Below, in pieces: positions 1,694 through 12,650 of a DNA stretch of 64,000 nt (positions are counted from its first letter, which is position 1; every line of letters starts with the position of its first letter). Origin of the DNA: Escherichia coli (GTDB lineage Bacteria; Pseudomonadota; Gammaproteobacteria; Enterobacterales; Enterobacteriaceae); NCBI RefSeq assembly GCF_013315695.1, contig NZ_CP054353.1, one strand, 5' to 3'. The notes under the pieces are model-generated. The model made no database searches. It was not told the origin of the DNA and was given only the letters and a program-made list of their open reading frames with translations. A program made the translations under genes and the position numbers.

Positions 1694-2092
1694 TTATCTG
1701 GATTTGTTAACGTCTTTCGTCTCCTCTGGCAGATCTTCATCAAACAACCTGCCCTGCATCCGATCCAGTTCTTCTTTTCTGACCCGCTTAACCACGCTGT
1801 AGACCCACTGAAGCGAAACACCAAAATTGCGGGCCAGTTCGTGGTGGTTGCGTCCGTTAAACTCCCTGAAGATTTCCCGGTCGCGCTGACTGACCTTCCA
1901 TACCATGCCCATCGGGAAATAAACGTTTTGCCCGCCCCAGACCTGCATCATTCGGTTCGCGACGGCCTGACCAATCTGGTCGGCAATTGCGGGCTCAATA
2001 TCAATAATCTCGCGAACGGTCTCAGAGGTATGCTGTGCCAGTTCCACCAGGAGTTCCGGCCCTTTACTTCGAAACTGATTCAGGTCGCTCAT
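1694..2092 (-). CDS. mor: Mor/C-family transcriptional activator (middle operon regulator-like)
   Basis: 132 aa; resembles phage Mu Mor as recalled (..HHELARNFGVSLQWVYSVVKR.. C-terminal HTH); sits after the GemA-like gene as in Mu. Confidence 0.75.
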   Translation of the reverse strand: MSDLNQFRSKGPELLVELAQHTSETVREIIDIEPAIADQIGQAVANRMMQVWGGQNVYFPMGMVWKVSQRDREIFREFNGRNHHELARNFGVSLQWVYSVVKRVRKEELDRMQGRLFDEDLPEETKDVNKSR

Positions 2093-2555
2093 GTTTTACT
2101 CCCGCAGCTCTGCGCTGCCACTTCTTCAGTTTCTCAATAACACTGCTTGCCTGTTCAGTATTGAGCCAGCGCAGGGCGCTGATGCCCGTTTCCCGCTTGA
2201 TCCACCGCGCTAATGCATTTTCTGAACGGTCACGAACAATGCCGGCAGCAGCCATTTCAAGCCATAGCGCACGGATTTTCCTGGACTGCGGATGGTTATC
2301 CAGCGGTAAACCGGAGCTGGCTTTTCTGGCAGGCTTAACGCGAAAGCCTTTCCTTTTCATGGATTCCAGCACGCAGTTTAGTTGTGTGGTATCCATTCCT
2401 TTGGTTGAGGCTTTACCGGTCAGCCCCTGTAACATCTGGCGGTAGGTGTCTTCATCCATACCCAGTTCATTACGGGCAATATGAATGAGCTGGATAAGAC
2501 GTTGTTTAGTCATCATCGTTGCTCCTTTTACCTGCGCCACCGATATAATCGACAT
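2064..2555 (-). CDS. GemA-like protein (Mu gp16 family)
   Basis: 163 aa ORF directly upstream of the mor-like gene on the same strand; sequence resembles Mu GemA/gp16-type proteins as recalled. Confidence 0.6.
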   Translation of the reverse strand: MSIISVAQVKGATMMTKQRLIQLIHIARNELGMDEDTYRQMLQGLTGKASTKGMDTTQLNCVLESMKRKGFRVKPARKASSGLPLDNHPQSRKIRALWLEMAAAGIVRDRSENALARWIKRETGISALRWLNTEQASSVIEKLKKWQRRAAGVKHERPESVSK

Positions 2556-2877
2556 ATAAAGGAAGCGCCACAGGCCAGCACAGGAACATCACCGACCAGC
2601 TAATCCAGTAGCCGGCACCACTGTAACGTGAATAAAACCCTGAACGGCGGTGCAGTTCAGCAGTACACCAACCGACAAAACAATACCAGAACAGGGCACA
2701 TACAACAGATTCAGCCGTCATTCTGAATATCCCCCCAACTGATATGAATATTACGGGCAGCAATGACAGGGTCGTTATTCCACCATGCACCTGACATGTA
2801 TTTTTCAACCTGTTCGCGTCCGGCAATAACACCAATTGTGATCCCCGGCCTGACGTTCTTAAAAAAGGCGCGGGCAA
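2506..2877 (-). CDS. Small hydrophobic protein; true start probably the internal Met near 2721
   Basis: Track ORF 123 aa; C-terminal 71 aa (MTAESVVCALFWYCFVGWC..WSVMFLCWPVALPLYV) has two hydrophobic helices; the N-terminal part overlaps ORF 2711..2941 in another frame. Confidence 0.3.
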   Translation of the reverse strand: MPAPFLRTSGRGSQLVLLPDANRLKNTCQVHGGITTLSLLPVIFISVGGIFRMTAESVVCALFWYCFVGWCTAELHRRSGFYSRYSGAGYWISWSVMFLCWPVALPLYVDYIGGAGKRSNDDD

Positions 2878-2941
2878 AAAGGTATCTGGCAGATATTCGG
2901 CAGGCTTTTAATTTCCGGCTGTTACCTGATAGCGTAATCAT
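2711..2941 (-). CDS. Hypothetical small phage protein
   Basis: 76 aa ORF tightly packed between neighbours in the early operon; no recognisable motif. Confidence 0.3.
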   Translation of the reverse strand: MITLSGNSRKLKACRISARYLFARAFFKNVRPGITIGVIAGREQVEKYMSGAWWNNDPVIAARNIHISWGDIQNDG

Positions 2942-3657
2942 CTGGCCTCCAGTTTCTGTTGTTCCTGCCCACTGACCGGGCGGTGCAGTCTGACGTTCTG
3001 CCCTTCACGAAACCCCGCATAGCGCGAGGCGTCGCCATTGCGGCTTCTTCCCGGTTTACGCGCCCTGGTGGTTTGCGTCTGCGGGTATTTATGTTCCAGC
3101 CACTGCTGCATCAGTTCACGCTCATCATCGGTCAGGGCAAAGGACTGTATTTCACTGATAACGGCCAGCACCCAGCCTTCGGCAAACTGGTCTCCACGGC
3201 TGGTGCGGGTGGCGGTTTTTATTCTTTTGTTCTGTGCACTGATATACTGCTGACGCGCCTTTTTCAGCTGACGGGCCAGCACTTCCCAGGTGTATGCAGC
3301 CAGTGCCGCACGTTCCCGGTTGCCGTAGAACCCCACAGACGGGTGCGTGCCGGGGTGAATGATGGAGTTAACACCAAATACCTCGCGGATGATGTTCATC
3401 AGGCCCAGCATGTAGCGCGGTGGACGGAGACTGCCTGTCGGCCAGTAGTGACTGATGGTTTCATCAATATCACTCATAGCAATGTCGGAATGTGTGATGC
3501 CGTGAACATCCATCAGTTTACGGGCTCGGCGCAGTGCCAGAGCGGCCTCGTGCGGGTTGCCGGATGCGGCCAGCGCCAGCAACTTTTTCAGTTTCTCAAT
3601 GTGTTTATTCTGGTCTGTCATTGTTCTGTATCTCCGGTATTTTTCTGCCGTTTCCAT
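2938..3657 (-). CDS. Hypothetical early protein, DUF2786-like N-terminal region
   Basis: 239 aa; N-terminal KLKKLLALAASGNPHEAALALRRARKLM resembles the DUF2786 motif common in Mu-like early regions (from memory). Confidence 0.55.
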   Translation of the reverse strand: METAEKYRRYRTMTDQNKHIEKLKKLLALAASGNPHEAALALRRARKLMDVHGITHSDIAMSDIDETISHYWPTGSLRPPRYMLGLMNIIREVFGVNSIIHPGTHPSVGFYGNRERAALAAYTWEVLARQLKKARQQYISAQNKRIKTATRTSRGDQFAEGWVLAVISEIQSFALTDDERELMQQWLEHKYPQTQTTRARKPGRSRNGDASRYAGFREGQNVRLHRPVSGQEQQKLEAR

Positions 3658-3833
3658 GCCCGGACAGCGTCGGACAGCTCTTTCAGGCTGTATGCTGCTT
3701 TAAGCTTTTCCCATAACCACTGTGTTGTTATGTGCATCAGCAGGGCAGCCAGGGCTGCCCCCGCACTGAGGCATGTCGCCAGGCCAGTAAGAATCAGTGT
3801 CCATGCGGTGATTTCCCTGAGTATGTCAGCCAT
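3618..3833 (-). CDS. Small membrane protein
   Basis: 71 aa with one hydrophobic helix (WTLILTGLATCLSAGAALAALLM); overlaps neighbours by a few codons, consistent with an operon. Confidence 0.4.
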   Translation of the reverse strand: MADILREITAWTLILTGLATCLSAGAALAALLMHITTQWLWEKLKAAYSLKELSDAVRAWKRQKNTGDTEQ

Positions 3834-3847
3834 TGAATGCCTCCCGG

Positions 3848-4144
3848 TTACTCGTTCGTGTAAATCACGCCCAGTCGTGCAGCCAGACGTTCCAGTTTTT
3901 TCTGTTTGTGGAAGTCAATCAGCCGGTCCATCCCCTGAAGGCGCAGTTGCTCTGTCATGATTTCCACGTCTGCCAGCTCTGCCGCGAGGTCACTTTCGCT
4001 GCCCTGTCCGTTCAGGTTGCGGGCGGCACTGGCCGCCAGTTCAGCGGCCTCTTCTGCCAGTTTCAGGGCCTGTGCGTCCGGCCCGAAACGCTGCAGGGCC
4101 AGACGGTAGAGGGCGGTGCGGGTGAGTTCGGTGTTTCGTGTCAT
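3848..4144 (-). CDS. MazG-like nucleotide pyrophosphohydrolase (small all-alpha NTP-PPase)
   Basis: 98 aa; acidic helix motifs LAEEAAELAAS and ELADVEIMTEQL resemble the EExxE/ExxD metal-binding helices of MazG/HisE-type pyrophosphatases. Confidence 0.5.
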   Translation of the reverse strand: MTRNTELTRTALYRLALQRFGPDAQALKLAEEAAELAASAARNLNGQGSESDLAAELADVEIMTEQLRLQGMDRLIDFHKQKKLERLAARLGVIYTNE

Positions 4145-4153
4145 GCCGCGCCC

Positions 4154-4426
4154 TCAGTGCTTCCGGCTGACGGTGATGTGCAGGCCGCCTTCTGCAGTGG
4201 TTTCCATCCGGTACGGCACCTCATGCTCTGCCGTGTGGGTGAGTGTGTTCATCAGTACCTGCAGGGCAGCCTCCTTTCCGTTGGTCGCCACAATGGCCTG
4301 TGTGGCCATGCTGATTAGCGCCGTCAGGACGTGATTCACATCGGTGAGGTCGCGGCATTCACACTCGTTGACATAGTGTTCAACAAGGGTTCGGGTGCGC
4401 TGTCGTGCTTCCTGTGGGGTAATCAT
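4154..4426 (-). CDS. Hypothetical early protein
   Basis: 90 aa ORF in the early operon; no motif recognised. Confidence 0.4.
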   Translation of the reverse strand: MITPQEARQRTRTLVEHYVNECECRDLTDVNHVLTALISMATQAIVATNGKEAALQVLMNTLTHTAEHEVPYRMETTAEGGLHITVSRKH

Positions 4427-4617
4427 TGCGCGTCCTCCCTGTCAGGGCGGGAGAATTCCATGACGGGCACGTCCGCCGAAAAATGCTGGCTGCAGTACGG
4501 GCAGACCAGGGTGACACGTACTGCAGGTATGTGATACTTACCGGACATCACGGCGATGGCGCTGTGAAAACGCAGGGCTGTTATATCCCTCTCGCACTGA
4601 ATACATTTAAATATCAT
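4423..4617 (-). CDS. Small zinc-ribbon-like protein
   Basis: 64 aa with CxxC ... CxxC spacing (CIQCERD ... CPYCSQ). Confidence 0.4.
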   Translation of the reverse strand: MIFKCIQCERDITALRFHSAIAVMSGKYHIPAVRVTLVCPYCSQHFSADVPVMEFSRPDREDAQ

Positions 4618-4714
4618 AATTTAATTCTCCTCTGTTTCCGGCGTGCAGAAGCCCACGGCGCTGACGCCGGAATAAAAAAGAAAATGTTTTTATTAAATAA
4701 TTAACGTGGTGTGT

Positions 4715-5245
4715 TTACTGCACATCCTGCTCAAAAGGAATTATTGAAAAATCCTCAATGTCGCTTTTAATGGAAATACCGGGAATATTTTTCACGGCCT
4801 CTTTTTCATTCAGAATGGCATCTTTATTTATTTCCTCCTTTACACGAATAAAGCGCTCAAGCCCCAGACGTCTCAGCAGTTCAATGACATTATCCGCCCC
4901 GCGAATGCTGACTGACGGCGGACGGTTTCGCCACTGCACCTCGCCGGTGGTGAGGTTAGCGAACTTCACCTTCCCGTTGCCGGTCAGTTCATCACGGTGC
5001 GCCTCACACCATGTCTGGATACCGGACTGCAGTTCGGCCATGCGTTTTTTCAGGCTCTCGGTGAGCGGGGCATAACGTGCAGTGATGTCGCCAATGGTGT
5101 CATTCATTTCTGTTTCAGCCCTGACCAGTTCACGTTGCGCGTCACCAAGCAGTCTGATTCCCTCAATGACCTCTTCGCGTGTCCCCGGCACCCAGAGTGC
5201 TGCTGCGGCTTTGATACGTTTTGCCCCTTTTGTACTTTTTGCCAT
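4715..5245 (-). CDS. gam: Gam-like host-nuclease inhibitor (DNA-end binding, Ku-like)
   Basis: 176 aa; strong resemblance to Mu Gam as recalled (AKRIKAAAALWVP.., ..CEAHRDELT.., ..RPPSVSIRG.., ..IEDFSIIPFEQ). Confidence 0.85.
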   Translation of the reverse strand: MAKSTKGAKRIKAAAALWVPGTREEVIEGIRLLGDAQRELVRAETEMNDTIGDITARYAPLTESLKKRMAELQSGIQTWCEAHRDELTGNGKVKFANLTTGEVQWRNRPPSVSIRGADNVIELLRRLGLERFIRVKEEINKDAILNEKEAVKNIPGISIKSDIEDFSIIPFEQDVQ

Positions 5246-5272
5246 ATTTTATGACTCCTCCTGTTGTGCTGA

Positions 5273-5542
5273 TTACCACAAAGATTCCGGCCACACGACG
5301 CGACAGCCGTGCAGTTCGAAAACGCCCTGACGGAAATATCCCCTGTGGTCATGTCCGGTATACAGATAACAGGCCTTTCCCTGCTCAAGCATGCGCATGC
5401 AATGCGCACTCCGGGAAACGCGGATGACAGGTTTGTTACCCCTGATGGTGATGCTTTGTACATCCGTGTTCGTCGCCTTAAGCGCCATAATGGCTGACTG
5501 CACTTTGCTGATTTGCTGGTTGATACCTGTGGTGGATTTCAT
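5273..5542 (-). CDS. Hypothetical early protein
   Basis: 89 aa ORF immediately downstream of the transposition ATPase gene. Confidence 0.4.
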   Translation of the reverse strand: MKSTTGINQQISKVQSAIMALKATNTDVQSITIRGNKPVIRVSRSAHCMRMLEQGKACYLYTGHDHRGYFRQGVFELHGCRVVWPESLW

Positions 5543-5544
5543 TA

Positions 5545-6750
5545 TTAAACCCCTTTGACAACGTCAGCGTTGACCTGTGGAACCCCGATTTCAGCGGCCA
5601 GATTCATGGCGGCTATCACCAGGTTACTGACGGCCAGCGGATACAGCAGGCTGACCATATTTTTACGATGACTTCCCGGATTGCTCAGGCGGGCACGTAT
5701 GGCATCCACTGCGCTGGCGTCCATAATGTCCGTCAGTTGTTTACCGGCCCGTTGCAGTTTGAACGTCAGAAATTCTTCAAGGTTATTGTCCAGAGGCAGA
5801 AGTTCGACCACCTCACAACGCTGAACGACTTCACGGACTTCCATATTGCGTTCAGACAGTTTTGTCGCCAGTTCCGGCTGGCCAATCAGCACGATGGACA
5901 GCAGTTTTTTGAAACCGGACTCCAGCTCAAAAAAGCGTTTGAGGTGTTTCAGTGTCGGAATGGGCAGACTGTGGGCCTCCTCAATCACCAAAACGTGGCT
6001 GAACCCCGCCTGGCTGCTGTCTTTCAGGACGCGATGCAACTGGCGAAAGCGGGCGTCCTGACTGCGTCTGATGCTTTCCAGTGGTGCGATGGTACTGATA
6101 ATGGCTTCGGCAATCGCTGCTGCCTTCAGGGTTTTCCCTTTCACATCGTTGTCTTCCATAGCGATGATGTATGGCTCGATAACAATTACCGGCGCATTCT
6201 CGCGGTTGATACGTTCAGTCAGGTCGCGGCGCAGCGTGGATTTACCCGCACCGGACTCACCGATGACGGCCATAAACCCACCATGACGGGCTGTCTGGTA
6301 CAACGCCTCACGCACGTAGCGAATGTCCGGGGTGGTGAACACATCATCAGAACCCTGCATGGCTTCATCGGCGAACGGGTCACGGAAAAGACCAAACGCT
6401 TTTTTGGTTGCTGGAAATAACACCTGTTTTTTGAGTAACATATTCTCTTCCTCACTGAGGCTCGTTTTATCTGTGGTACCCGCTGTACGGGGCGTGGCTG
6501 CGCCCTGTACAGCATCAAAACTCTTCGTTGTATCAATCCCCTGACTTTCCAGCCAGGACGCAAGACGCCGGCGCACTTCTCCGGGGCTGGTGCGGGGCCA
6601 CGCGTTATGATTCACAATCTGGGCCAGCGTGGCCTCAGAAACATCGACAGCTCTCGCCACCACCGCCTGTGGGATACGGGCCTCTTTCAGTTGCTGCTTC
6701 AGTACCAGCATGTTTTCCTCCTCAGTTGCCGTTAACAATGCTGATAACAC
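5545..6750 (-). CDS. Transposition ATPase (AAA+; functional analogue of Mu B / TniB-like)
   Basis: 401 aa; Walker A GESGAGKST and Walker B-like HVLVIEEAH; N-terminal HTH-like segment; directly downstream of the transposase. Confidence 0.85.
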   Translation of the reverse strand: MLSALLTATEEENMLVLKQQLKEARIPQAVVARAVDVSEATLAQIVNHNAWPRTSPGEVRRRLASWLESQGIDTTKSFDAVQGAATPRTAGTTDKTSLSEEENMLLKKQVLFPATKKAFGLFRDPFADEAMQGSDDVFTTPDIRYVREALYQTARHGGFMAVIGESGAGKSTLRRDLTERINRENAPVIVIEPYIIAMEDNDVKGKTLKAAAIAEAIISTIAPLESIRRSQDARFRQLHRVLKDSSQAGFSHVLVIEEAHSLPIPTLKHLKRFFELESGFKKLLSIVLIGQPELATKLSERNMEVREVVQRCEVVELLPLDNNLEEFLTFKLQRAGKQLTDIMDASAVDAIRARLSNPGSHRKNMVSLLYPLAVSNLVIAAMNLAAEIGVPQVNADVVKGV

Positions 6751-8491
6751 TGCTGCGTGCCGGCGTGGTCAGCGTGGCCATGACTTCATCCAGTGCAGCT
6801 TCCGGTACGCCGTCCGGGTACTGTGCCGTTAACTGGCGGTAATGTTCCGGCGTCCAGGTAAGGCCGTCGGCGCTGAACTTATCGCGCAGGGCTTTCGCGG
6901 CCTCCACATGAGTCATGGGACGTTGTTCAGTGCGCGGCCCGCGTACGTCAGAGGCCTGACCACGCTTCGGCATATAGGCCGGAAGTGTGGTGTCGTCGAT
7001 ATGTTTATACGGGTCAAGCCGCCCGCCGAACGGCAGCGCCTTCGCCTTGCGTGCGGCGGCTGCATCTGCGGCGTTGTCTGTACCGGTAACCAGCGCTTCA
7101 GTTTCTTTTGCCGCCATCTGTGCCGAGGTTTCCGGCAGGGCTTTGTAACTTTCGCCAAATACCGCCGCGCCTTCAGCAAAGCCAAACTCGTTCTTTCTGA
7201 CCTCTTCGACCAGGAAGAACGTCTCGTGGCCGTCCTCACCGGTCAGAACCACCTGTGCCACATCGCTGCGCCATGGGTTACGGGTAATCATCAGTTTTTC
7301 ACCAACCAGTACGCCCGGTACCGTTGATACGTCAAATTCAGTGCCCCGGAACGAGACACGAAGTTTTGGCGTGACTTTGCGGAGTTCTGGTGCCGCCACA
7401 GCCAGTTCACGACATACCTCAACGGAAGGCGCTTTTTTCAGCTGCTCAGCAGTAATCTTCAGCCAGATATCCGTGCGGGTTTTACCGTGGCGGCTGTGAA
7501 CAGCCGTGGCGTTAAAGTGGCTGCGCCATTTCGCGGCCAGCGCGTTGAGTTCTTCCAGACTGTGAACCGGCCGGAACTTCAGCCCCGGCTCCAGCTTGCG
7601 TTCGATAATGTCACGCGCCTTTTCCACCTGTCCGGTGGCGCGGGCGTTATGCGGCTTGTGCGCTATCAGGTCGATGCCCAGTGAGCGGCACATGTTTTTC
7701 GTCATACCCGCGGTGTTTGCCGAGCCGGGGTCGAGATAGAGTATTTTCGGCACGCCGTGCAGCACGTCTGCGCCGCCACGCTCCTGCATGGCGTTGATAA
7801 GCACAGAGCACAGGTTCTCACCTGATTCCGCGCCCGTCACATACTCAACGTAAATCCAGCCGCTGGCATGGTCGGTAATCTCGTAACTCCACACGCGGTC
7901 ACTGGCGATACGGGCAAGGTTAGCGGGCTTGTTCTTGTAGAACTTCGCGCTGTCCATCACCTGCAGCCCTTTATGTCCATTGCTCAGGTAGTAAAGCGTG
8001 CAGAGTGAGGCGTCAATCTGCCAGACATGATTGGGATGCAGACTGGCCACTTCGGTATGTGGTGCAGGGGCATCCAGTTGTTCCGGGTGCAGGCCATAGT
8101 TACGCAGAGCACGGCTGATGGCATCTTCAGACAACGGGAAAAACTCACTGGTGGTTTCATCTGTTCTGCCTGCGGTGATAAAGCCGTTAGCCCGCAGGGT
8201 TTCCACTGCATCTGCGATGGAATAGAGACGCTTACCGTTCTTGCGGGTGGCCTCACGCAGTGTGGCAGATATCAGCGCGGCTTCGTCGCGGGTCAGGGCG
8301 CTGCGCCCGGCATCGGCGCGTTTTTTGCGTTTATCAGTCACAGAGACCTCCTTCAGCCTGCGCAGCAGAGTGGCGCGGGACATGCCAAGTTCAGCACAGG
8401 CAGCGTCGTATATTGCACCGCGTTTACCATGCCCCGCGTCACGTGCCGCGCGGGCGACATAAACCAGTCGTTCAGTCAGGGCAGCATTCAT
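6722..8491 (-). CDS. DDE transposase (Mu A-like, integrase-core fold)
   Basis: 589 aa; N-terminal HTH, central HVWQIDASL-type DDE core; paired with an AAA+ ATPase gene as in transposable phages. Confidence 0.85.
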   Translation of the reverse strand: MNAALTERLVYVARAARDAGHGKRGAIYDAACAELGMSRATLLRRLKEVSVTDKRKKRADAGRSALTRDEAALISATLREATRKNGKRLYSIADAVETLRANGFITAGRTDETTSEFFPLSEDAISRALRNYGLHPEQLDAPAPHTEVASLHPNHVWQIDASLCTLYYLSNGHKGLQVMDSAKFYKNKPANLARIASDRVWSYEITDHASGWIYVEYVTGAESGENLCSVLINAMQERGGADVLHGVPKILYLDPGSANTAGMTKNMCRSLGIDLIAHKPHNARATGQVEKARDIIERKLEPGLKFRPVHSLEELNALAAKWRSHFNATAVHSRHGKTRTDIWLKITAEQLKKAPSVEVCRELAVAAPELRKVTPKLRVSFRGTEFDVSTVPGVLVGEKLMITRNPWRSDVAQVVLTGEDGHETFFLVEEVRKNEFGFAEGAAVFGESYKALPETSAQMAAKETEALVTGTDNAADAAAARKAKALPFGGRLDPYKHIDDTTLPAYMPKRGQASDVRGPRTEQRPMTHVEAAKALRDKFSADGLTWTPEHYRQLTAQYPDGVPEAALDEVMATLTTPARSSVISIVNGN

Positions 8492-8494
8492 TGG

Positions 8495-9409
8495 TTATGC
8501 CTCCAGCCCGTTAATCTGTGGCGTCGGCTCAGTCAGCCATGAAGGCGCTGCATTGCCTGTTGGCTCGTCCGGCAGGTCAAATGTGGAGCGCAGGCTACGC
8601 GCTGTGCTTTCCAGTTGACAGACCAGGCCTGCCATGAAGTCTCTGGGGGTATCAATCATGTTTTCAGCACAATATGCGCACAGCGTCTCAAAAGCGCTGG
8701 ACAGTCGGACGGCGATAGCAGATTCCGCCTCAACCGCTAATGCTGTTACTTCCGCCCGCAGCTTCTTAACCTCCTCATCAGGCTCAGGCGGCTGAATACG
8801 GGATTTCTTCTCCAGTCTGGTGGAGAGTGAATCTATTTTTTCATTTTTGTCGGCGAGTACGCGCTGTTGTGCTGCGTTGGTTTCGCGCGCTTCGCGCAGG
8901 GCCTGACGCAATTCACGTACTGACATGCGATCAACGTCGTCAAGCGTCAGGCCGGCAACTGTGCCGCCGTCGGCCAATTCATCAAGTTCTTCATTATCCA
9001 GAACCATCAGGTCGTACAGTTTGGCTTTCCCCAAAACGCTCAACGTTGAGCGTTTTGTTGGCTCATCACCTTCTCCCAAAAACTTCATACTGGCTTGCAT
9101 CATGCGGCGAGCAACTTGTGGTGCAAGTCCGAGTTCATTTTCTAAAATGTTTGTAAAATCACCGTGTGGCTCATTTTCTTTTAAGATGATCAGCCGCTTA
9201 CCCGCTTCCAGCATAGATTCAGCACTCTGCGCCATATAAAAACGTGCTTCGTGAACAATGCGATCACGTTCATAAGGCAGTCCATCACCAAACTGCTGCA
9301 TAATTTCCATGCGATGCTGTGTCATAGCGTTCAAATTGACATTGATGTTATCTGACAGCGGAACCTCAACATTCAGTTCAGTGTTAACGGGTGATTTGGT
9401 GCGTCCCAT
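8495..9409 (-). CDS. Hypothetical protein with coiled-coil region, between ner-like gene and transposase
   Basis: 304 aa ORF; heptad-rich central region (..RELRQALREARETNAAQQRVLADKNEKIDSLSTRLEKK..). Not recognised. Confidence 0.45.
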   Translation of the reverse strand: MGRTKSPVNTELNVEVPLSDNINVNLNAMTQHRMEIMQQFGDGLPYERDRIVHEARFYMAQSAESMLEAGKRLIILKENEPHGDFTNILENELGLAPQVARRMMQASMKFLGEGDEPTKRSTLSVLGKAKLYDLMVLDNEELDELADGGTVAGLTLDDVDRMSVRELRQALREARETNAAQQRVLADKNEKIDSLSTRLEKKSRIQPPEPDEEVKKLRAEVTALAVEAESAIAVRLSSAFETLCAYCAENMIDTPRDFMAGLVCQLESTARSLRSTFDLPDEPTGNAAPSWLTEPTPQINGLEA

Positions 9410-9419
9410 TGATTACTCC

Positions 9420-9791
9420 TTACAAACGACTACCTGAAATAACTCGTTGGTTGATTTCGTTAATACGATCCTGTGCACGCGCCATCTCGTGACTGTGAGC
9501 CATGGCGATCTGTAGTAACTGGATTCCCGGTGCGAAACGTCCGTTCTCTAATTTCATGGCCAGTCCCTCTTCAATAAGGGTATTAAGTGCTCGATTGATA
9601 TTCGCCGGGGACTCCCCCAGGGCTGATGCCAGTTCACCGTTAGAAACACCGTTCAGAGCATGACCGCGTAGAGCTTTGAGTACACGTAGGATGCGGGTCC
9701 CAGAACTGGAAATATTTACTTTACTCATGTCACATTTCCATTTTTGCAATATGTGATAACCTGTTGCATATGTGGAAAATTTATGCCGCAT
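9420..9791 (-). CDS. Putative DNA-binding protein (HTH-like)
   Basis: 123 aa; segment LNGVSNGELASALGESPANINRALNTLIEEGL resembles a winged-helix/HTH element. Confidence 0.4.
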   Translation of the reverse strand: MRHKFSTYATGYHILQKWKCDMSKVNISSSGTRILRVLKALRGHALNGVSNGELASALGESPANINRALNTLIEEGLAMKLENGRFAPGIQLLQIAMAHSHEMARAQDRINEINQRVISGSRL

Positions 9792-9969
9792 TTGACGTGG
9801 GTTTTAATCCCAGTTTTACGGCAATTTCATGGGCTTTGCCGTAACGAGCTTTGGTCTGTCCATTGAGAACACGATAGACCTCATTGCGGCTGTAGCCGTG
9901 TTCTTCGGCCCAGCGGGTAAACGTGATACCACGCTGACGGAAGAGATTTTTAACTTGTTCGGAAGTCAT
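9781..9969 (-). CDS. ner: Ner/Nlp-family DNA-binding protein
   Basis: 62 aa; resembles Ner/Nlp family (..TFTRWAEEHGYSRNEVYRVLNG..KARYGKAHEIAVKLG); first gene of the leftward early operon, divergent from the repressor. Confidence 0.75.
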   Translation of the reverse strand: MTSEQVKNLFRQRGITFTRWAEEHGYSRNEVYRVLNGQTKARYGKAHEIAVKLGLKPTSNAA

Positions 9970-10018
9970 TGTTGTCTCCTTTGTTGATGCAATGATGTTT
10001 GTTTTATATGTGATAGAT

Positions 10019-10038
10019 TATGAGAACTATTGTTCTCA
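10019..10038. promoter_or_regulatory. Candidate operator: 8-bp inverted repeat ATGAGAAC-N4-GTTCTCAT between the ner-like and repressor genes
   Basis: Perfect inverted repeat read directly from the sequence in the divergent control region. Confidence 0.35.
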
Positions 10039-10481
10039 TTGTCAATGAGGTTTGTGTGAATTTTGATTCTCTTTGCGCGTCGCGGTTCAAAGCTGAGCGT
10101 TCGCGGTTATCACTCAAGCAGGCTGAAGTAGCAGCCCTTTGTGGCGTTTCAAGAGAAATGTGGGGGAAATATGAACGAGGGGTTGCTGTTCCCGGAGGTG
10201 AGTTACTTGCAGCCTTTGCAAGAATTGGGGCCAATGTACAGTTCATTCTTACCGGGGAGTCATCAGGTATAACTTTATCACGTGATGAAATGGAGTTACT
10301 GCAGCACTACCGGCAGGCACCATTACAGGTCAAAGGTTCAGTTTTGTCGGCCTTGACTACTGGCTCCTCCAGAGAACGGGCGGAACAGGTTATTCATGGA
10401 GATGTTCTGGGGAATGTTATCAAAGGTAACGTAACCATAGGAACAGGTGGAATAATGAACAAAAATACCAAGAGAAGATGA
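10020..10481 (+). CDS. Phage repressor (XRE-family HTH); start codon uncertain, possibly GTG at 10056
   Basis: 153 aa; HTH LSLKQAEVAALCGVSREMWGKYERG; divergent from the early operon as for a c-type repressor. Confidence 0.7.
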   Translation: MRTIVLIVNEVCVNFDSLCASRFKAERSRLSLKQAEVAALCGVSREMWGKYERGVAVPGGELLAAFARIGANVQFILTGESSGITLSRDEMELLQHYRQAPLQVKGSVLSALTTGSSRERAEQVIHGDVLGNVIKGNVTIGTGGIMNKNTKRR

Positions 10482-11464
10482 GTAAAGAGAAGCAAACAGT
10501 TAACGGGGATGTGGGTAACGTTGTCAGCGGTGATGTTACCATTCATAACTATTCTGCTGACATACTTCCTTCGGCCCAGCAACCAATTTCGTTGCTGCAA
10601 AAACGCGATTTACACAGATTGATGGATGAATTGGTTGATCTGGGGGAAAGTAAGCGCGAGCTATGGATGACGATCCACACGAAACTTAATACCAAAACAG
10701 TTAATGAAATGACTGCGGCTGATTATCATGGTGCGGTTGAGATCCTTCAGAGATATGCACAACAGATCCAGAATATGAAGGACTGTAATCTTCTGGTCAG
10801 CAAAATAATGGCGCTTACTGACCCTGGGTATCGTCTTGACCGTGACAGATACTGTCTGAAGCATTTCGGTACAACCCATCTTAAAGGCCTAGACAAAGAG
10901 CAGTTGCAGGCTGTGTTTGGTTATTTTGATGATCTGCTGAATATTCGTGATGAGAGTAAAACTCTATCACCTCCATCGGAAAGCGGTGCAAAATCAGTCG
11001 CAACTGTACCAACCAGAAGCCGGAAGCCTCATGTAGTAGTGTTGGGGGGAGTGTTAGTTCTTGTAGCAATATTTTTCGTGGGAATGATTGTGTTCGCTGG
11101 TAAATGGGGAAATGCCAAAGCAGTAGCTTCTACTGAAACCAGCGTTTTTAACATTAAAACCAACGATAAAATAATAGAAGATTCCATCCCCGCACTGCGC
11201 AGCATGTTTCCAGGGTTAAATAAGTACTCAGATGATTTCCATTCGGTTTCAAGCTACAAGCAAAAAACGGGCTGGCATACCCTTAAATTTACTGTATCAG
11301 CAAAGGCATCCGTCCCCGAAAATTATAGTGTTAAGGGCAAGGTTTGTTACATTAACATAAGCCCTGATGGTAGTTATGCTCGGGTTTTGACTGCTCCATG
11401 TCGTTCACTGCTACTTGATCAGCAAAGCACTCCTGACAGTAAATACCGTTTTATTCTTAAATAG
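10478..11464 (+). CDS. Hypothetical bitopic membrane protein, translationally coupled to the repressor
   Basis: 328 aa; ATG overlaps the repressor stop (ATGA at 10478..10481); single hydrophobic helix VVVLGGVLVLVAIFFVGMIVFAG around aa 186-208; no family recognised. Confidence 0.6.
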   Translation: MSKEKQTVNGDVGNVVSGDVTIHNYSADILPSAQQPISLLQKRDLHRLMDELVDLGESKRELWMTIHTKLNTKTVNEMTAADYHGAVEILQRYAQQIQNMKDCNLLVSKIMALTDPGYRLDRDRYCLKHFGTTHLKGLDKEQLQAVFGYFDDLLNIRDESKTLSPPSESGAKSVATVPTRSRKPHVVVLGGVLVLVAIFFVGMIVFAGKWGNAKAVASTETSVFNIKTNDKIIEDSIPALRSMFPGLNKYSDDFHSVSSYKQKTGWHTLKFTVSAKASVPENYSVKGKVCYINISPDGSYARVLTAPCRSLLLDQQSTPDSKYRFILK

Positions 11465-11545: not shown

Positions 11546-12136
11546 GTGATGAACATGGCAGGGATTCAGGTTATCGCAGGAAGTTTTCCTAAAGGGTGGG
11601 CAAGCATGGGGTTCGGTACCATCGTGTTTGCCAAAAAAACAAAACAAGGCTTTCCTGAAAATATTGTATTAAATCTGAAAGAAGAGCTTTTATCGATTGA
11701 ACTTGCGGATAGTGAAGAGGAAAGCCGTATAGGTAAGGCGGCAGGCGCAGGTTTGCTTGGTGGATTAATCTTTGGTGGTGCAGGGTTGGTCATTGGAGGT
11801 TTGCTTGGTGCGGCGGACAAGACGAAAAAAACTATCACTTTTAAGGCAATGTTTACGGGAAATAGGTTACTTCTGGCTAAAACAGATTCAAAAACTTTTG
11901 TAAAACTTCAGTCAATTGCTGCTGATAATGCCCATAACGCATCTGTAATCAACATGAAGCAAACTAATAGGGGCGATGTTTCTTCTCGTAAACAACTAAC
12001 AGAAAATCCACAGCAGCAAGACTTACCTGCGCCCGCTACAACAGTAAAAATGACTGCCAAAGATAAGTTAGAATCGGCTCTTGGGCTGGGAATCATCGTT
12101 ATAGCTGTTTGGGCAATAATACACTTCTTTTTTTAG
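11546..12136 (+). CDS. Hypothetical membrane protein with glycine-zipper segment and C-terminal hydrophobic anchor
   Basis: 196 aa; GAGLLGGLIFGGAGLVIGGLLGAA and C-terminal LGLGIIVIAVWAIIHFFF; possible RBS aaaggtga upstream. Confidence 0.5.
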   Translation: MMNMAGIQVIAGSFPKGWASMGFGTIVFAKKTKQGFPENIVLNLKEELLSIELADSEEESRIGKAAGAGLLGGLIFGGAGLVIGGLLGAADKTKKTITFKAMFTGNRLLLAKTDSKTFVKLQSIAADNAHNASVINMKQTNRGDVSSRKQLTENPQQQDLPAPATTVKMTAKDKLESALGLGIIVIAVWAIIHFFF

Positions 12137-12137
12137 T

Positions 12138-12160
12138 GCAGCCCTTCAGGGCTGTTTCTG
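12138..12160. terminator. Hairpin between convergent genes (possible bidirectional terminator)
   Basis: gcagccc-ttca-gggctg stem-loop followed by tttctgtt, between ORF 11546..12136 (+) and 12174..12650 (-). Confidence 0.4.
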
Positions 12161-12173
12161 TTCAGGAGGTATC

Positions 12174-12650
12174 TTAAGGATTATCCGGGGCGTTTTCCTG
12201 TTTGCCGTACTTCGGAGACGAACAACATTCTGTTGGCTGACCGGTGAGTTTACGTAACTCCTTCATGAGCAGCTCCTGATCGTAAACTGTCATCAGTGCC
12301 GCAATGGTGGCATGCAGTGCATCGGGCAGTATCCAGGGTTGCCGGCCCGTGGGGCATATAACATCCAGCAGCTCATTCGTCCGACAGATACGCTCCTCGC
12401 CGTATGACAACAGGCCCTGTCCCGTGTATTCCTCTAGCCTGATCACTGTGCCACCCCGTGGCTTCTGCCAGGTCGTCAGATCTTCGCCATTCATACGGCG
12501 CTCATTCTCCACGTCAGCAGCATCGACAATGACGCTGTTTCCGAGTTCCTGTTTCACCATCTCTTCTATCCGCGCCAGTACGTAACTTTTACCGCTGCCC
12601 ACAGGACCGGACACAGTGACAGTGATGACCGGATTCAGTGTGTGCGTCAT
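12174..12650 (-). CDS. Small P-loop NTPase / kinase-like protein
   Basis: 158 aa; Walker A GPVGSGKS at residues 15-22; convergent with the preceding membrane-protein gene. Confidence 0.55.
   Translation of the reverse strand: MTHTLNPVITVTVSGPVGSGKSYVLARIEEMVKQELGNSVIVDAADVENERRMNGEDLTTWQKPRGGTVIRLEEYTGQGLLSYGEERICRTNELLDVICPTGRQPWILPDALHATIAALMTVYDQELLMKELRKLTGQPTECCSSPKYGKQENAPDNP

Follow-up and report, generated by a model that had tools for sequence, protein, structure and literature searches.

Prophage repressors are known to respond to RecA, which stimulates their cleavage, as well as to soluble anti-repressors, to proteases and to peptide or quorum signals. In phage Mu, the C-terminal tail of the repressor governs sensitivity to ClpXP as well as DNA binding, its last about 20 residues being regulatory, and MuA possesses a basic C-terminal ClpX tag; we know of no mimicking partner protein for Mu. 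The SinR/SinI (SlrR/SlrA) system of Bacillus subtilis consists of an XRE repressor antagonised by the product of an adjacent gene sharing its C-terminal self-association region, and Mlc is a soluble repressor controlled at the inner membrane, where the cytoplasmic part of the membrane protein PtsG binds and sequesters it. Short motifs located at the C-terminal end of one protein and at the N-terminal end of the product of the adjacent gene, and falling into many families, are the genomic signature by which the HET-s and BASS amyloid motifs have been defined (10.1101/2020.01.06.895854). Here we report such an arrangement in the immunity region of a Mu-like prophage lying within a 64,000-nucleotide (nt) stretch of Escherichia coli DNA (contig NZ_CP054353.1 of assembly GCF_013315695.1; the whole stretch is hereafter the window), where an XRE-type helix-turn-helix (HTH) repressor ends, and the membrane protein encoded next to it begins, with a copy of the same short glycine-rich motif. 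The matching of the two ends generalises to other prophages, in which it co-varies and is specific to the cognate pair. The gene pair comprises the following features (aa, amino acids; pLDDT, predicted local distance difference test):

10020..10481, + strand: immunity repressor gene, XRE-type HTH; annotated start ATG 10020 (RefSeq), likelier start GTG 10056, giving 141 aa
10278..10364, + strand: repressor linker helices SRDEMELLQHYRQAPLQVKGSVLSALTTG, two helices in the AlphaFold2 model, pLDDT about 75
10395..10439, + strand: repressor C-terminal motif copy HGDVLGNVIKGNVTI, aa 126-140; extended conserved stretch 10386-10451
10458..10478, + strand: basic extreme C-terminus of the repressor, NKNTKRR, a Lys/Arg-rich end after the glycine-rich tail
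10478..11464, + strand: partner gene, 328-aa bitopic membrane protein, phrog_10002 (RefSeq: hypothetical protein)
10502..10543, + strand: partner N-terminal motif copy NGDVGNVVSGDVTI, aa 9-22; extended conserved stretch KQTVNGDVGNVVSGDVTIHNY at 10490-10552
10583..10957, + strand: Flk_N domain, predicted cytoplasmic helical bundle, about aa 36-160
11030..11101, + strand: single transmembrane helix, aa 185-208; Kyte-Doolittle 19-residue maximum 3.05 at aa 186
11102..11461, + strand: partner C-terminal domain, presumably periplasmic, about 120 aa, with two conserved Cys (..CYINISPDGSYARVLTAPC..)

The repetition of the motif, to which a first-pass annotation of the window had drawn attention, proved to be real. 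The repressor segment HGDVLGNVIKGNVTI aligns with NGDV-GNVVSGDVTI of the partner, and the best local alignment of the two whole proteins falls exactly on these segments, with a Smith-Waterman score (BLOSUM62) of 55 against 29.9 ± 4.3 for composition-preserving shuffles (shuffle maximum 54; 0/2000 reach 55). A regular expression for a triple G[DN]V recovers only these two sites in the six frames of the window. The motif is nearly invariant in 20 partner homologues down to 44% identity, where it forms the best-conserved stretch of the protein (G10, G13, N14, V15, V16, S17, G18, V20, T21, I22 and Y25 being the near-invariant residues), and it is kept in the close homologues of the repressor. A chance resemblance might be suspected between two segments that are short and compositionally biased towards Gly, Asn and Val; it is refuted by the shuffles, by the rarity of the pattern and by the recurrence of the match, with different sequences, in dozens of loci.

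The same annotation spoke of a shared short domain, a term which does not apply: we are dealing with a motif of 14-20 residues embedded in regions predicted to be disordered. No Pfam-A family covers it in either protein. There was likewise no Pfam match to the pentapeptide repeat families; a period-5 G[DN]Vxx pattern is seen by eye in three units only and is missing from the other motif classes described below. A programmed frameshift or transcriptional slippage fusing the two open reading frames (ORFs) was also considered and rejected. The partner frame is open from 48 nt 5' of its ATG, and the interval 10430-10478 contains no X_XXY_YYZ heptamer and only an A5 run; such a fusion is further contradicted by other classes, in which the two genes are separated by gaps of 2-35 nt with stops in between.

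The identification of the upstream protein as a repressor and of the downstream one as a membrane protein coupled to it was borne out. The former matches HTH_31 (4.7e-07) and HTH_3 (1.6e-04) in Pfam and is assigned to transcriptional regulator/repressor families in PHROGs, and its modelled HTH superposes on those of P22 c2, 434 and SinR. Its gene lies in a prophage and diverges from a Ner-like gene and the transposase operon, i.e. from the early lytic operon, as expected of a temperate-phage immunity repressor. No Peptidase_S24 (LexA-like autocleavage) domain was detected in the repressor with Pfam, its C-terminal half being composed of two helices and the tail. Concerning its start, GTG 10056 is more likely to be the real one than the annotated ATG 10020, since it is preceded by GAGG at 5 nt and yields an N-terminus like that of the homologues (V/MNFDS), and since ATG 10020 sits within a leftward promoter-like site (10045..10017). 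The linker segment is kept as ..YR.APL..KAA.LAALT.. in repressors with differing HTH domains and is conserved along with the tail. Nearly all tail-bearing homologues possess a Lys/Arg-rich end after the glycine-rich tail (..NKKNK, ..NENKK, ..GRKRK, ..SKKKR), and by analogy with the Mu repressor and MuA this basic extremity may matter functionally.

The partner gene overlaps the repressor gene by ATGA (repressor stop 10479-10481, partner start 10478), an arrangement indicative of translational coupling, and encodes a single hydrophobic helix (aa 185-208). Its N-terminal half is related to Flk: the NCBIfam model NF007987 matches aa 19-147 (E 2.9e-12) with 46.6 bits, far under the 353-bit equivalog cut-off; by BLASTP the partner is 25% identical to the Flk of E. 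coli K-12 (E 1e-5); the homologues of the partner carry precomputed PF27202 (Flk_N) assignments, and membership in Flk_N was also seen in a profile search. AlphaFold2 models residues 39-159 as a helical bundle (pLDDT about 90). The partner thus contains an Flk_N domain but is not Flk. As RSRKPH precedes the transmembrane helix, the positive-inside rule suggests an N-in topology, in which the motif and Flk_N would be cytoplasmic and the C-terminal domain periplasmic; the Flk_N of Flk itself faces the cytoplasm (PMC13344023). The C-terminal domain is conserved in the partner homologues of the window class and exclusive to them. It is lacking in the tail-anchored partners of four related loci (L002, L005, L053 and L054), and the shortened relatives and the other classes stop at the membrane anchor.

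The same pair of repressor and Flk_N genes was retrieved from Mu-like and P2/186-like prophages, and the more distant repressor homologues end in other glycine-rich tails. A P2/186-like prophage of Citrobacter encodes, in order, the repressor, the Flk_N protein, a further gene and the integrase, and a Mu-like prophage of Pectobacterium possesses the same two-gene module. In these two loci the repressors end in ...VSGNGNRVAGRDYNEKK and ...SQIFNGDVSGQFAGNQIINNG..KKNK, and the partners begin with MEVNSSGDQNRTAGRDFTEN... and MRQEFNGTAQGQFSSRDIINIH..., respectively, so that each partner N-terminus copies the tail of its own repressor and not that of the window. Among the loci collected through the partner, the tail matches the partner N-terminus in 48/48, and L053 and L054 yield two further motif variants. 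The motif comes in 12 or more different versions, which include GDVxGNV, NRVAGRDY, FNGxxxGQF, HRxALGDY, HGGQF..INNY and NIYNI. Class-specific pairs of tail and N-terminus read GDVLGNVIKGNVTI / GDV-GNVVSGDVTI, SGNGNRVAGRDYNE / SGDQNRTAGRDFTE, QIFNGDVSGQFAGNQIIN / QEFNGTAQGQFSSRDIIN, GKGHRFALGDYHEN / GQEHRIALGDYYEH, VHGGQFSTGTINNY / IHGGQFGQVINNY, QIFNGNIDGQVSAENIYNI / QHFNHTVGQVAANNIYNI and VKNAAGRDINNY / ARNLAGRDINNY.

In order to sample repressors independently of the partner, collections of viral, genome and metagenome sequences were scanned with the back-translated DNA pattern of the repressor HTH (RE[MI]W[GS]KYERG), a procedure that therefore involves no selection on the partner. New versions of the pair were obtained: KGHRFALGDYHEN / QEHRIALGDYYEH; VHGGQFSTGTINNY / IHGGQFGQVINNYY; QIFNGNIDGQVSAENIYNI / QHFNHTVGQVAANNIYNI; VKNAAGRDINNY / ARNLAGRDINNY; VKNVAGRDII / AKNVAQRDVI; and KITGNGNRIAGRDYNEH / KINGDNNRVAANDYHEY. 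Several of them sit on partners without Flk_N, namely proteins with two transmembrane segments (136-153 aa), proteins combining a Zn-ribbon and a transmembrane segment and, slightly farther downstream, small soluble proteins. These alternative partners belong to no PHROGs family, and PADLOC returned no match for them or for the proteins of the window. Repressors of the same family with a helical C-terminal domain, and without the glycine-rich tail, have unrelated neighbours.

Across 60 non-redundant pairs of repressor and next gene gathered via the HTH alone, the mean tail-to-N-terminus score is 31.9 for cognate and 20.2 for non-cognate combinations (permutation 0/10000), and for the 34 tails matching any partner in the set the corresponding values are 40.1 and 22.6 (permutation 0/20000); loci within a motif class are related, so these permutation counts overstate the number of independent events, which amounts to about 12-15 independent motif versions. 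For 13 of the 34 tails the cognate partner ranks first, most of the others being outranked only by members of their own class, and the table of motif classes is essentially diagonal. The rule also has predictive value. Five Flk_N representatives with divergent N-termini were taken from a profile search and their contigs examined for an upstream HTH gene; four of the five are preceded by an HTH repressor with a matching tail (QQFNGPVGTVTTGDVVN / QQFHGAVEQVAAGDIKN, SGIVVSGSGNRTAGENYHE / SDIGVEGDQNRVAGRDYLE, VGQYIEGSVNQAG / VGQVAEGDINNFG and QIVHGDVGQSISGD / QKVYGNVGQMIGRD, with 0, 0, 4 and 6 of 2000 shuffles, in that order, reaching the observed score).

Several observations made in the course of this survey are worth recording. 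In six loci (L170, L159, L127, L123, L187 and L077) the repressor ends in a helix (..ERIIRLVRAA, ..NVIQLIRRVA) and its Flk_N-like neighbour starts with a similar amphipathic helix (..KIVRLVREAS, ..QLIRIIREAE), the glycine-rich stretch being located further in. A second, helical kind of end-matching (..ERIIRLVRAA versus ..KIVRLVREAS) is significant in 2/6 of these loci only and is hence not claimed. In a Mu-like prophage of the Burkholderiaceae (L052 / L119 / L121) the repressor bears a clear glycine-rich tail ..IRIDGTVHGHVVQGDVVQHG..; a DUF4236 protein is encoded next to it, and 6.5 kb of sequence yielded no matching N-terminus. In a related Mu-like locus (L192:3490-4362) the next gene of the repressor-Flk_N operon encodes a protein with a TIR_2 domain, which is often met in anti-phage defence.

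The first-pass annotation had also pointed to a similarity at the DNA level and offered a local duplication as one of its explanations. Similarity in the DNA is present, yet it does not exceed what the protein similarity demands, as 4 of the 11 identical residues share a codon where 3.8 are expected from local codon usage. Over 23 matched pairs, the same codon is used in 94/224 identical aligned residues (42%) against a chance expectation of about 38%. Identical residues with codon sharing near chance indicate that the similarity is maintained at the protein level, which rules out a recent duplication, gene conversion and a constraint acting on the RNA.

An ancient duplication or gene fission is a possible origin of the pair. 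Protein P0224 (262 aa) combines in a single chain an XRE HTH, a glycine-rich stretch (..ATVLHVNSKGPVVGFVHQGATVNQIHNHHH..) and an Flk_N-like domain, with no membrane anchor; judging from its sequence, it is the fused counterpart of the two window genes and provides a Rosetta-stone link between repressor and partner. Flk_N also appears, by eye, to be combined with other phage regulator modules, as P0218 and P0223 possess an N-terminal region typical of Rha-type phage regulators followed by an Flk_N-like stretch. One could accordingly imagine that a small tandem duplication, out of frame, broke an ancestral HTH-motif-Flk_N gene in two, and that the two copies persist for unrelated reasons, one as a linker and the other as a start region. 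The copies in the window begin at 10395 and 10502, a distance of 107 nt, and do not share a reading frame, which is how such an event would leave them. Independent drift of two relics, however, predicts that a tail should resemble its own partner no better than the partners of other classes, and the opposite is observed; moreover, the residues have been kept while synonymous sites are saturated, no part of the partner protein is better conserved than its copy, and the matching extends to partners without Flk_N. We consider it very improbable that the copies are mere relics.

Recombination has left its mark on the repressors as well. Among repressors sharing a tail class, the HTH domains are only 29-55% identical, whereas the linker-plus-tail halves are 59-90% and the partners 64-97% identical. 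Through recombination, operator specificity is thus uncoupled from the C-terminal half of the repressor and the partner gene, which are inherited together as one unit. As a given motif class is found on unrelated partner architectures and with unrelated HTH domains, the motif behaves as an autonomous unit, and its in-register identity, its cognate specificity and its independence from both HTH type and partner fold argue for an autonomous recognition element.

What might be recognised? We favour, with a probability of roughly 0.4, a direct homotypic association of the tail with the N-terminus, i.e. a self-association motif coupling the repressor to its membrane partner. The two segments would be two copies of one glycine-rich, disordered and β-prone motif, whose in-register match would allow a repressor and its own membrane partner to co-assemble while excluding the versions of other prophages. 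A fraction of the immunity repressor would thereby be placed at the cytoplasmic face of the inner membrane, on the protein bearing the Flk_N and periplasmic domains. Such tethering or titration could alter the availability of the repressor through sequestration, stability or oligomeric state, so that the maintenance of lysogeny, induction or immunity would become coupled to the state of the membrane protein. Sharing a transcript and translational coupling with the repressor, the partner is expected to be present in the lysogen rather than to act as an induced anti-repressor. That the copies associate physically, that the repressor is tethered to the membrane and that the switch is thereby affected are what we infer from these sequence patterns.

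Structure prediction was attempted with AlphaFold2 on a fused construct (paired alignment of 25 rows; partner residues 1-165, a 30-residue GS linker and the repressor, which places the motifs far apart in the chain). The Flk_N and HTH domains and the two linker helices were modelled with confidence. A single-sequence concatemer, 3x(tail + N-terminus), displayed short strands at equivalent positions (NV[IV], VTIxx) in 6/6 copies at a mean pLDDT of 37. According to these models, both segments are best described as intrinsically disordered short motifs with β propensity. The common interaction surface suggested in the first-pass annotation accordingly stands as the best fit insofar as the ends co-vary over many motif versions and partner architectures, although AlphaFold2 gave no folded complex.

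Several points speak against a homotypic association. The fused model predicts no complex, its residues 1-30 and last 39 having pLDDT <50 and no secondary structure, and the strands of the concatemer carry a confidence too low to count. The tail-bearing repressor of L052 has no detectable matching neighbour, and conversely one Flk_N protein (L193) has no HTH neighbour; the relatedness of loci within each class, mentioned above, also has to be borne in mind. A match in register between the two peptides would be just as expected were both to bind a single third site.

This last possibility, in which the copies would contact not each other but the same third surface (the linker helices or HTH of the repressor, or the globular domain of the partner), deserves attention, even though we hold it to be doubtful. 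The N-terminus of the partner would then be a pseudo-ligand competing with the tail, with altered oligomerisation or DNA binding of the repressor as the consequence. Identity in register is precisely what competition for one site predicts, the linker helices are conserved along with the tail, and SinI provides a precedent by mimicking the oligomerisation element of its repressor SinR, the SinR-SinI complex (1b0n) being among the fold matches of the HTH. On the other hand, the occurrence of the same motif class with several unrelated partner architectures implies that the site is not in the globular domain of the partner, and a site encoded by the host is improbable, given that prophages of a single host species carry widely differing versions of the motif; AlphaFold2 docked neither motif on the linker helices or the HTH.

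The organisation of the locus raises a further possibility, that of amyloid-type signalling. Under such a scheme, the motifs would form a new, large prion-like family acting on a transcription factor, and the clustered or activated form of one protein would nucleate a cross-β structure templating the motif of the other. The membrane protein, with its presumed periplasmic sensor domain, could template the repressor tails, leading to an all-or-none and self-propagating loss of the repressor and to induction of the prophage; or, conversely, the repressor could arm a membrane effector. The possession of its own motif version by each prophage would avoid cross-triggering among co-resident prophages. 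Besides the genomic signature shared with HET-s and BASS, this idea finds encouragement in the BASS11 pair Bab/Agp, which functions in an E. coli prophage defence island (10.1101/2024.11.07.622273), in the composition of the motifs (rich in G, N, Q and D, with spaced β-branched residues and predicted disorder as monomers) and in the concatemer strands at equivalent positions in all six copies, albeit at low confidence. Yet the pair includes no NLR/STAND receptor and no known cell-death effector: in place of an NLR/STAND-type receptor and a membrane-disrupting effector (Bell, HeLo, TIR) we find an HTH_31 repressor and an Flk_N protein, neither of them matched by PADLOC. The motifs are shorter (14-20 aa) and contain conserved charged pairs (GRD), the concatemer model has a mean pLDDT of 37, and a repressor needed in every lysogen would run the risk of spontaneous and irreversible aggregation. 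We therefore regard amyloid-type signalling as unlikely, and retain the homotypic association as our working model.

The Mu-like prophage, a myovirus element, spans about 1.7-38.6 kb (1700-38640) of the window. Apart from the gene pair itself, its immunity region is organised as follows:

from 9969, - strand: leftward genes, namely Ner-like, IclR-like HTH, DUF3102, 589-aa transposase, ExeA/MuB-like ATPase, Gam and Mor
10017..10045, - strand: promoter-like site, TTGACA-17-CATAAT, an 11/12 match to consensus only, facing the Ner-like gene and transposase operon
from 10020, + strand: rightward genes, namely XRE repressor, 328-aa 'hypothetical protein', 196-aa protein and hairpin, then lysis, head and tail genes
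11546..12155 including the hairpin, + strand: third gene of the repressor transcription unit, 196 aa, phrog_12025, hydrophobic C-terminus
12138-12155: terminator-like hairpin ending the repressor transcription unit

The promoter-like site (10045..10017) is a candidate for the divergent early promoter of the switch region. The third-gene position is occupied by different genes across related loci; it is given here as context, and we do not claim it as a member of the motif system. The early operon (1694-9969, - strand, Ner-like gene to Mor) and the late genes are transcribed in diverging directions, and the repressor operon, on the + strand side (10020-38000), is directed at the lysis and head genes; this arrangement is the reverse of the classical Mu layout. 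A 158-aa ORF on the - strand (12174-12650), with the P-loop GPVGSGKS, annotated as 'ABC transporter ATPase' and assigned to phrog_3787, converges on the repressor operon between the immunity and lysis genes and is possibly a moron. At the far end, a recombinase-family gene (38066-38638, + strand) lies beside tail-fibre and tail-fibre-assembly genes that face in opposite directions and of which one is truncated, so that the segment 36354-38638 looks like a Gin/Cin-type invertible host-range segment.

The prophage is embedded in the remnants of another one, lambdoid or Rac-like, which make up its flanks (40-1580 and 38700-64000); truncated DUF6645 and SASA-esterase genes are found on one side and IraM, HokD, RusA, DUF968 and YdaT-type genes on the other. 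In strain IAI39 the same element adjoins a truncated lom and lambdoid tail-fibre genes. The DNA of the window is identical, base for base, to that of annotated E. coli chromosomes (in an ST131 strain, 100% over 1551 bases with coinciding gene coordinates), and that of the region is present in 572/5426 of the complete E. coli genomes searched, with a query coverage of 80% or more in 126 of them; strains of ST131 and other extraintestinal ones are included. Sequence-variant versions occur in Citrobacter, Pectobacterium, Serratia, Photorhabdus, Pasteurellaceae, Orbaceae and beyond. Among deposited phages, megablast gave a single weak partial match (PhiKM), and tblastn with the partner of class C (the NRVAGRDY type) gave three records; the module is thus mostly a prophage feature.

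If our reading is correct, a co-inherited cassette tying the C-terminus of a repressor to a membrane protein would constitute a further input into the lysogeny switch, possibly reporting the state of the envelope or periplasm. It would also provide a testable entry to the Flk_N domain, the mechanism of which in flagellar assembly is still being worked out, and the co-varying motif versions lend themselves to specificity-swap tests. More generally, searching for gene pairs in which the C-terminal end of the first product equals the N-terminal end of the second yields protein pairs beyond the NLR/effector systems for which this rule was devised. In the open-access literature we found no description linking such motifs to XRE repressors or Flk_N proteins.

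How, then, does the locus compare with what has been described? With Flk the partner shares a cytoplasmic, helical Flk_N domain and a C-terminal membrane anchor. Flk, however, possesses two Flk_N repeats, where the window protein shows one matched stretch, and a Pro/Gly-rich N-terminus (MIQPISGPPPGQ...) without the motif, and the flk gene is chromosomal, located between pdxB and yfcJ with no repressor neighbour. The basic extreme C-terminus ..NKNTKRR, which follows the motif, recalls the tails of the Mu repressor and MuA, although the winged-helix repressor of Mu bears no relation to the XRE repressor. Sequestration of the Mlc/PtsG type would place a repressor at the membrane in a comparable manner, but it involves neither a shared motif nor an adjacent, co-varying gene pair, and sequestration is in our case only proposed.

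SinR/SinI resembles the present system in associating an XRE HTH repressor with an adjacent gene that shares the C-terminal element of the repressor, and the HTH folds are related (1b0n and 3qq6 being among the matches). The Sin element is nevertheless a helical hook domain, whereas here the shared stretch consists of 14-20 glycine-rich residues predicted to be disordered or β; no Pfam match to the helical Sin domain (SinI) was found, and the tail contains no helix in the model. Furthermore, the putative mimic is anchored in the membrane, and its gene lies downstream in the transcription unit of the repressor, with coupled translation; antagonism could be proposed only by analogy. The closest parallel in organisation is offered by the amyloid motif pairs (fungal HET-s/sigma/PP, BASS1-10 and the BASS11 pair Bab/Agp), in which a short motif likewise sits at the C-terminal end of a first protein and recurs at the N-terminal end of the one encoded next to it, many families each match their own pair, the sequences are rich in G, N and Q and disordered as monomers, one member is membrane-directed, and some of the pairs reside in prophages. 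They differ in combining an NLR/STAND or TPR sensor with a Bell/HeLo-type pore-former, in place of an XRE repressor with Flk_N or small membrane proteins; here, moreover, it is the membrane protein that bears the N-terminal copy, and the motifs, known from sequence, are shorter and contain conserved charged residues. What appears to be new is the application of one of these two principles, matching terminal motifs of adjacent gene products or anti-repressor mimicry, to a prophage repressor and a membrane protein.

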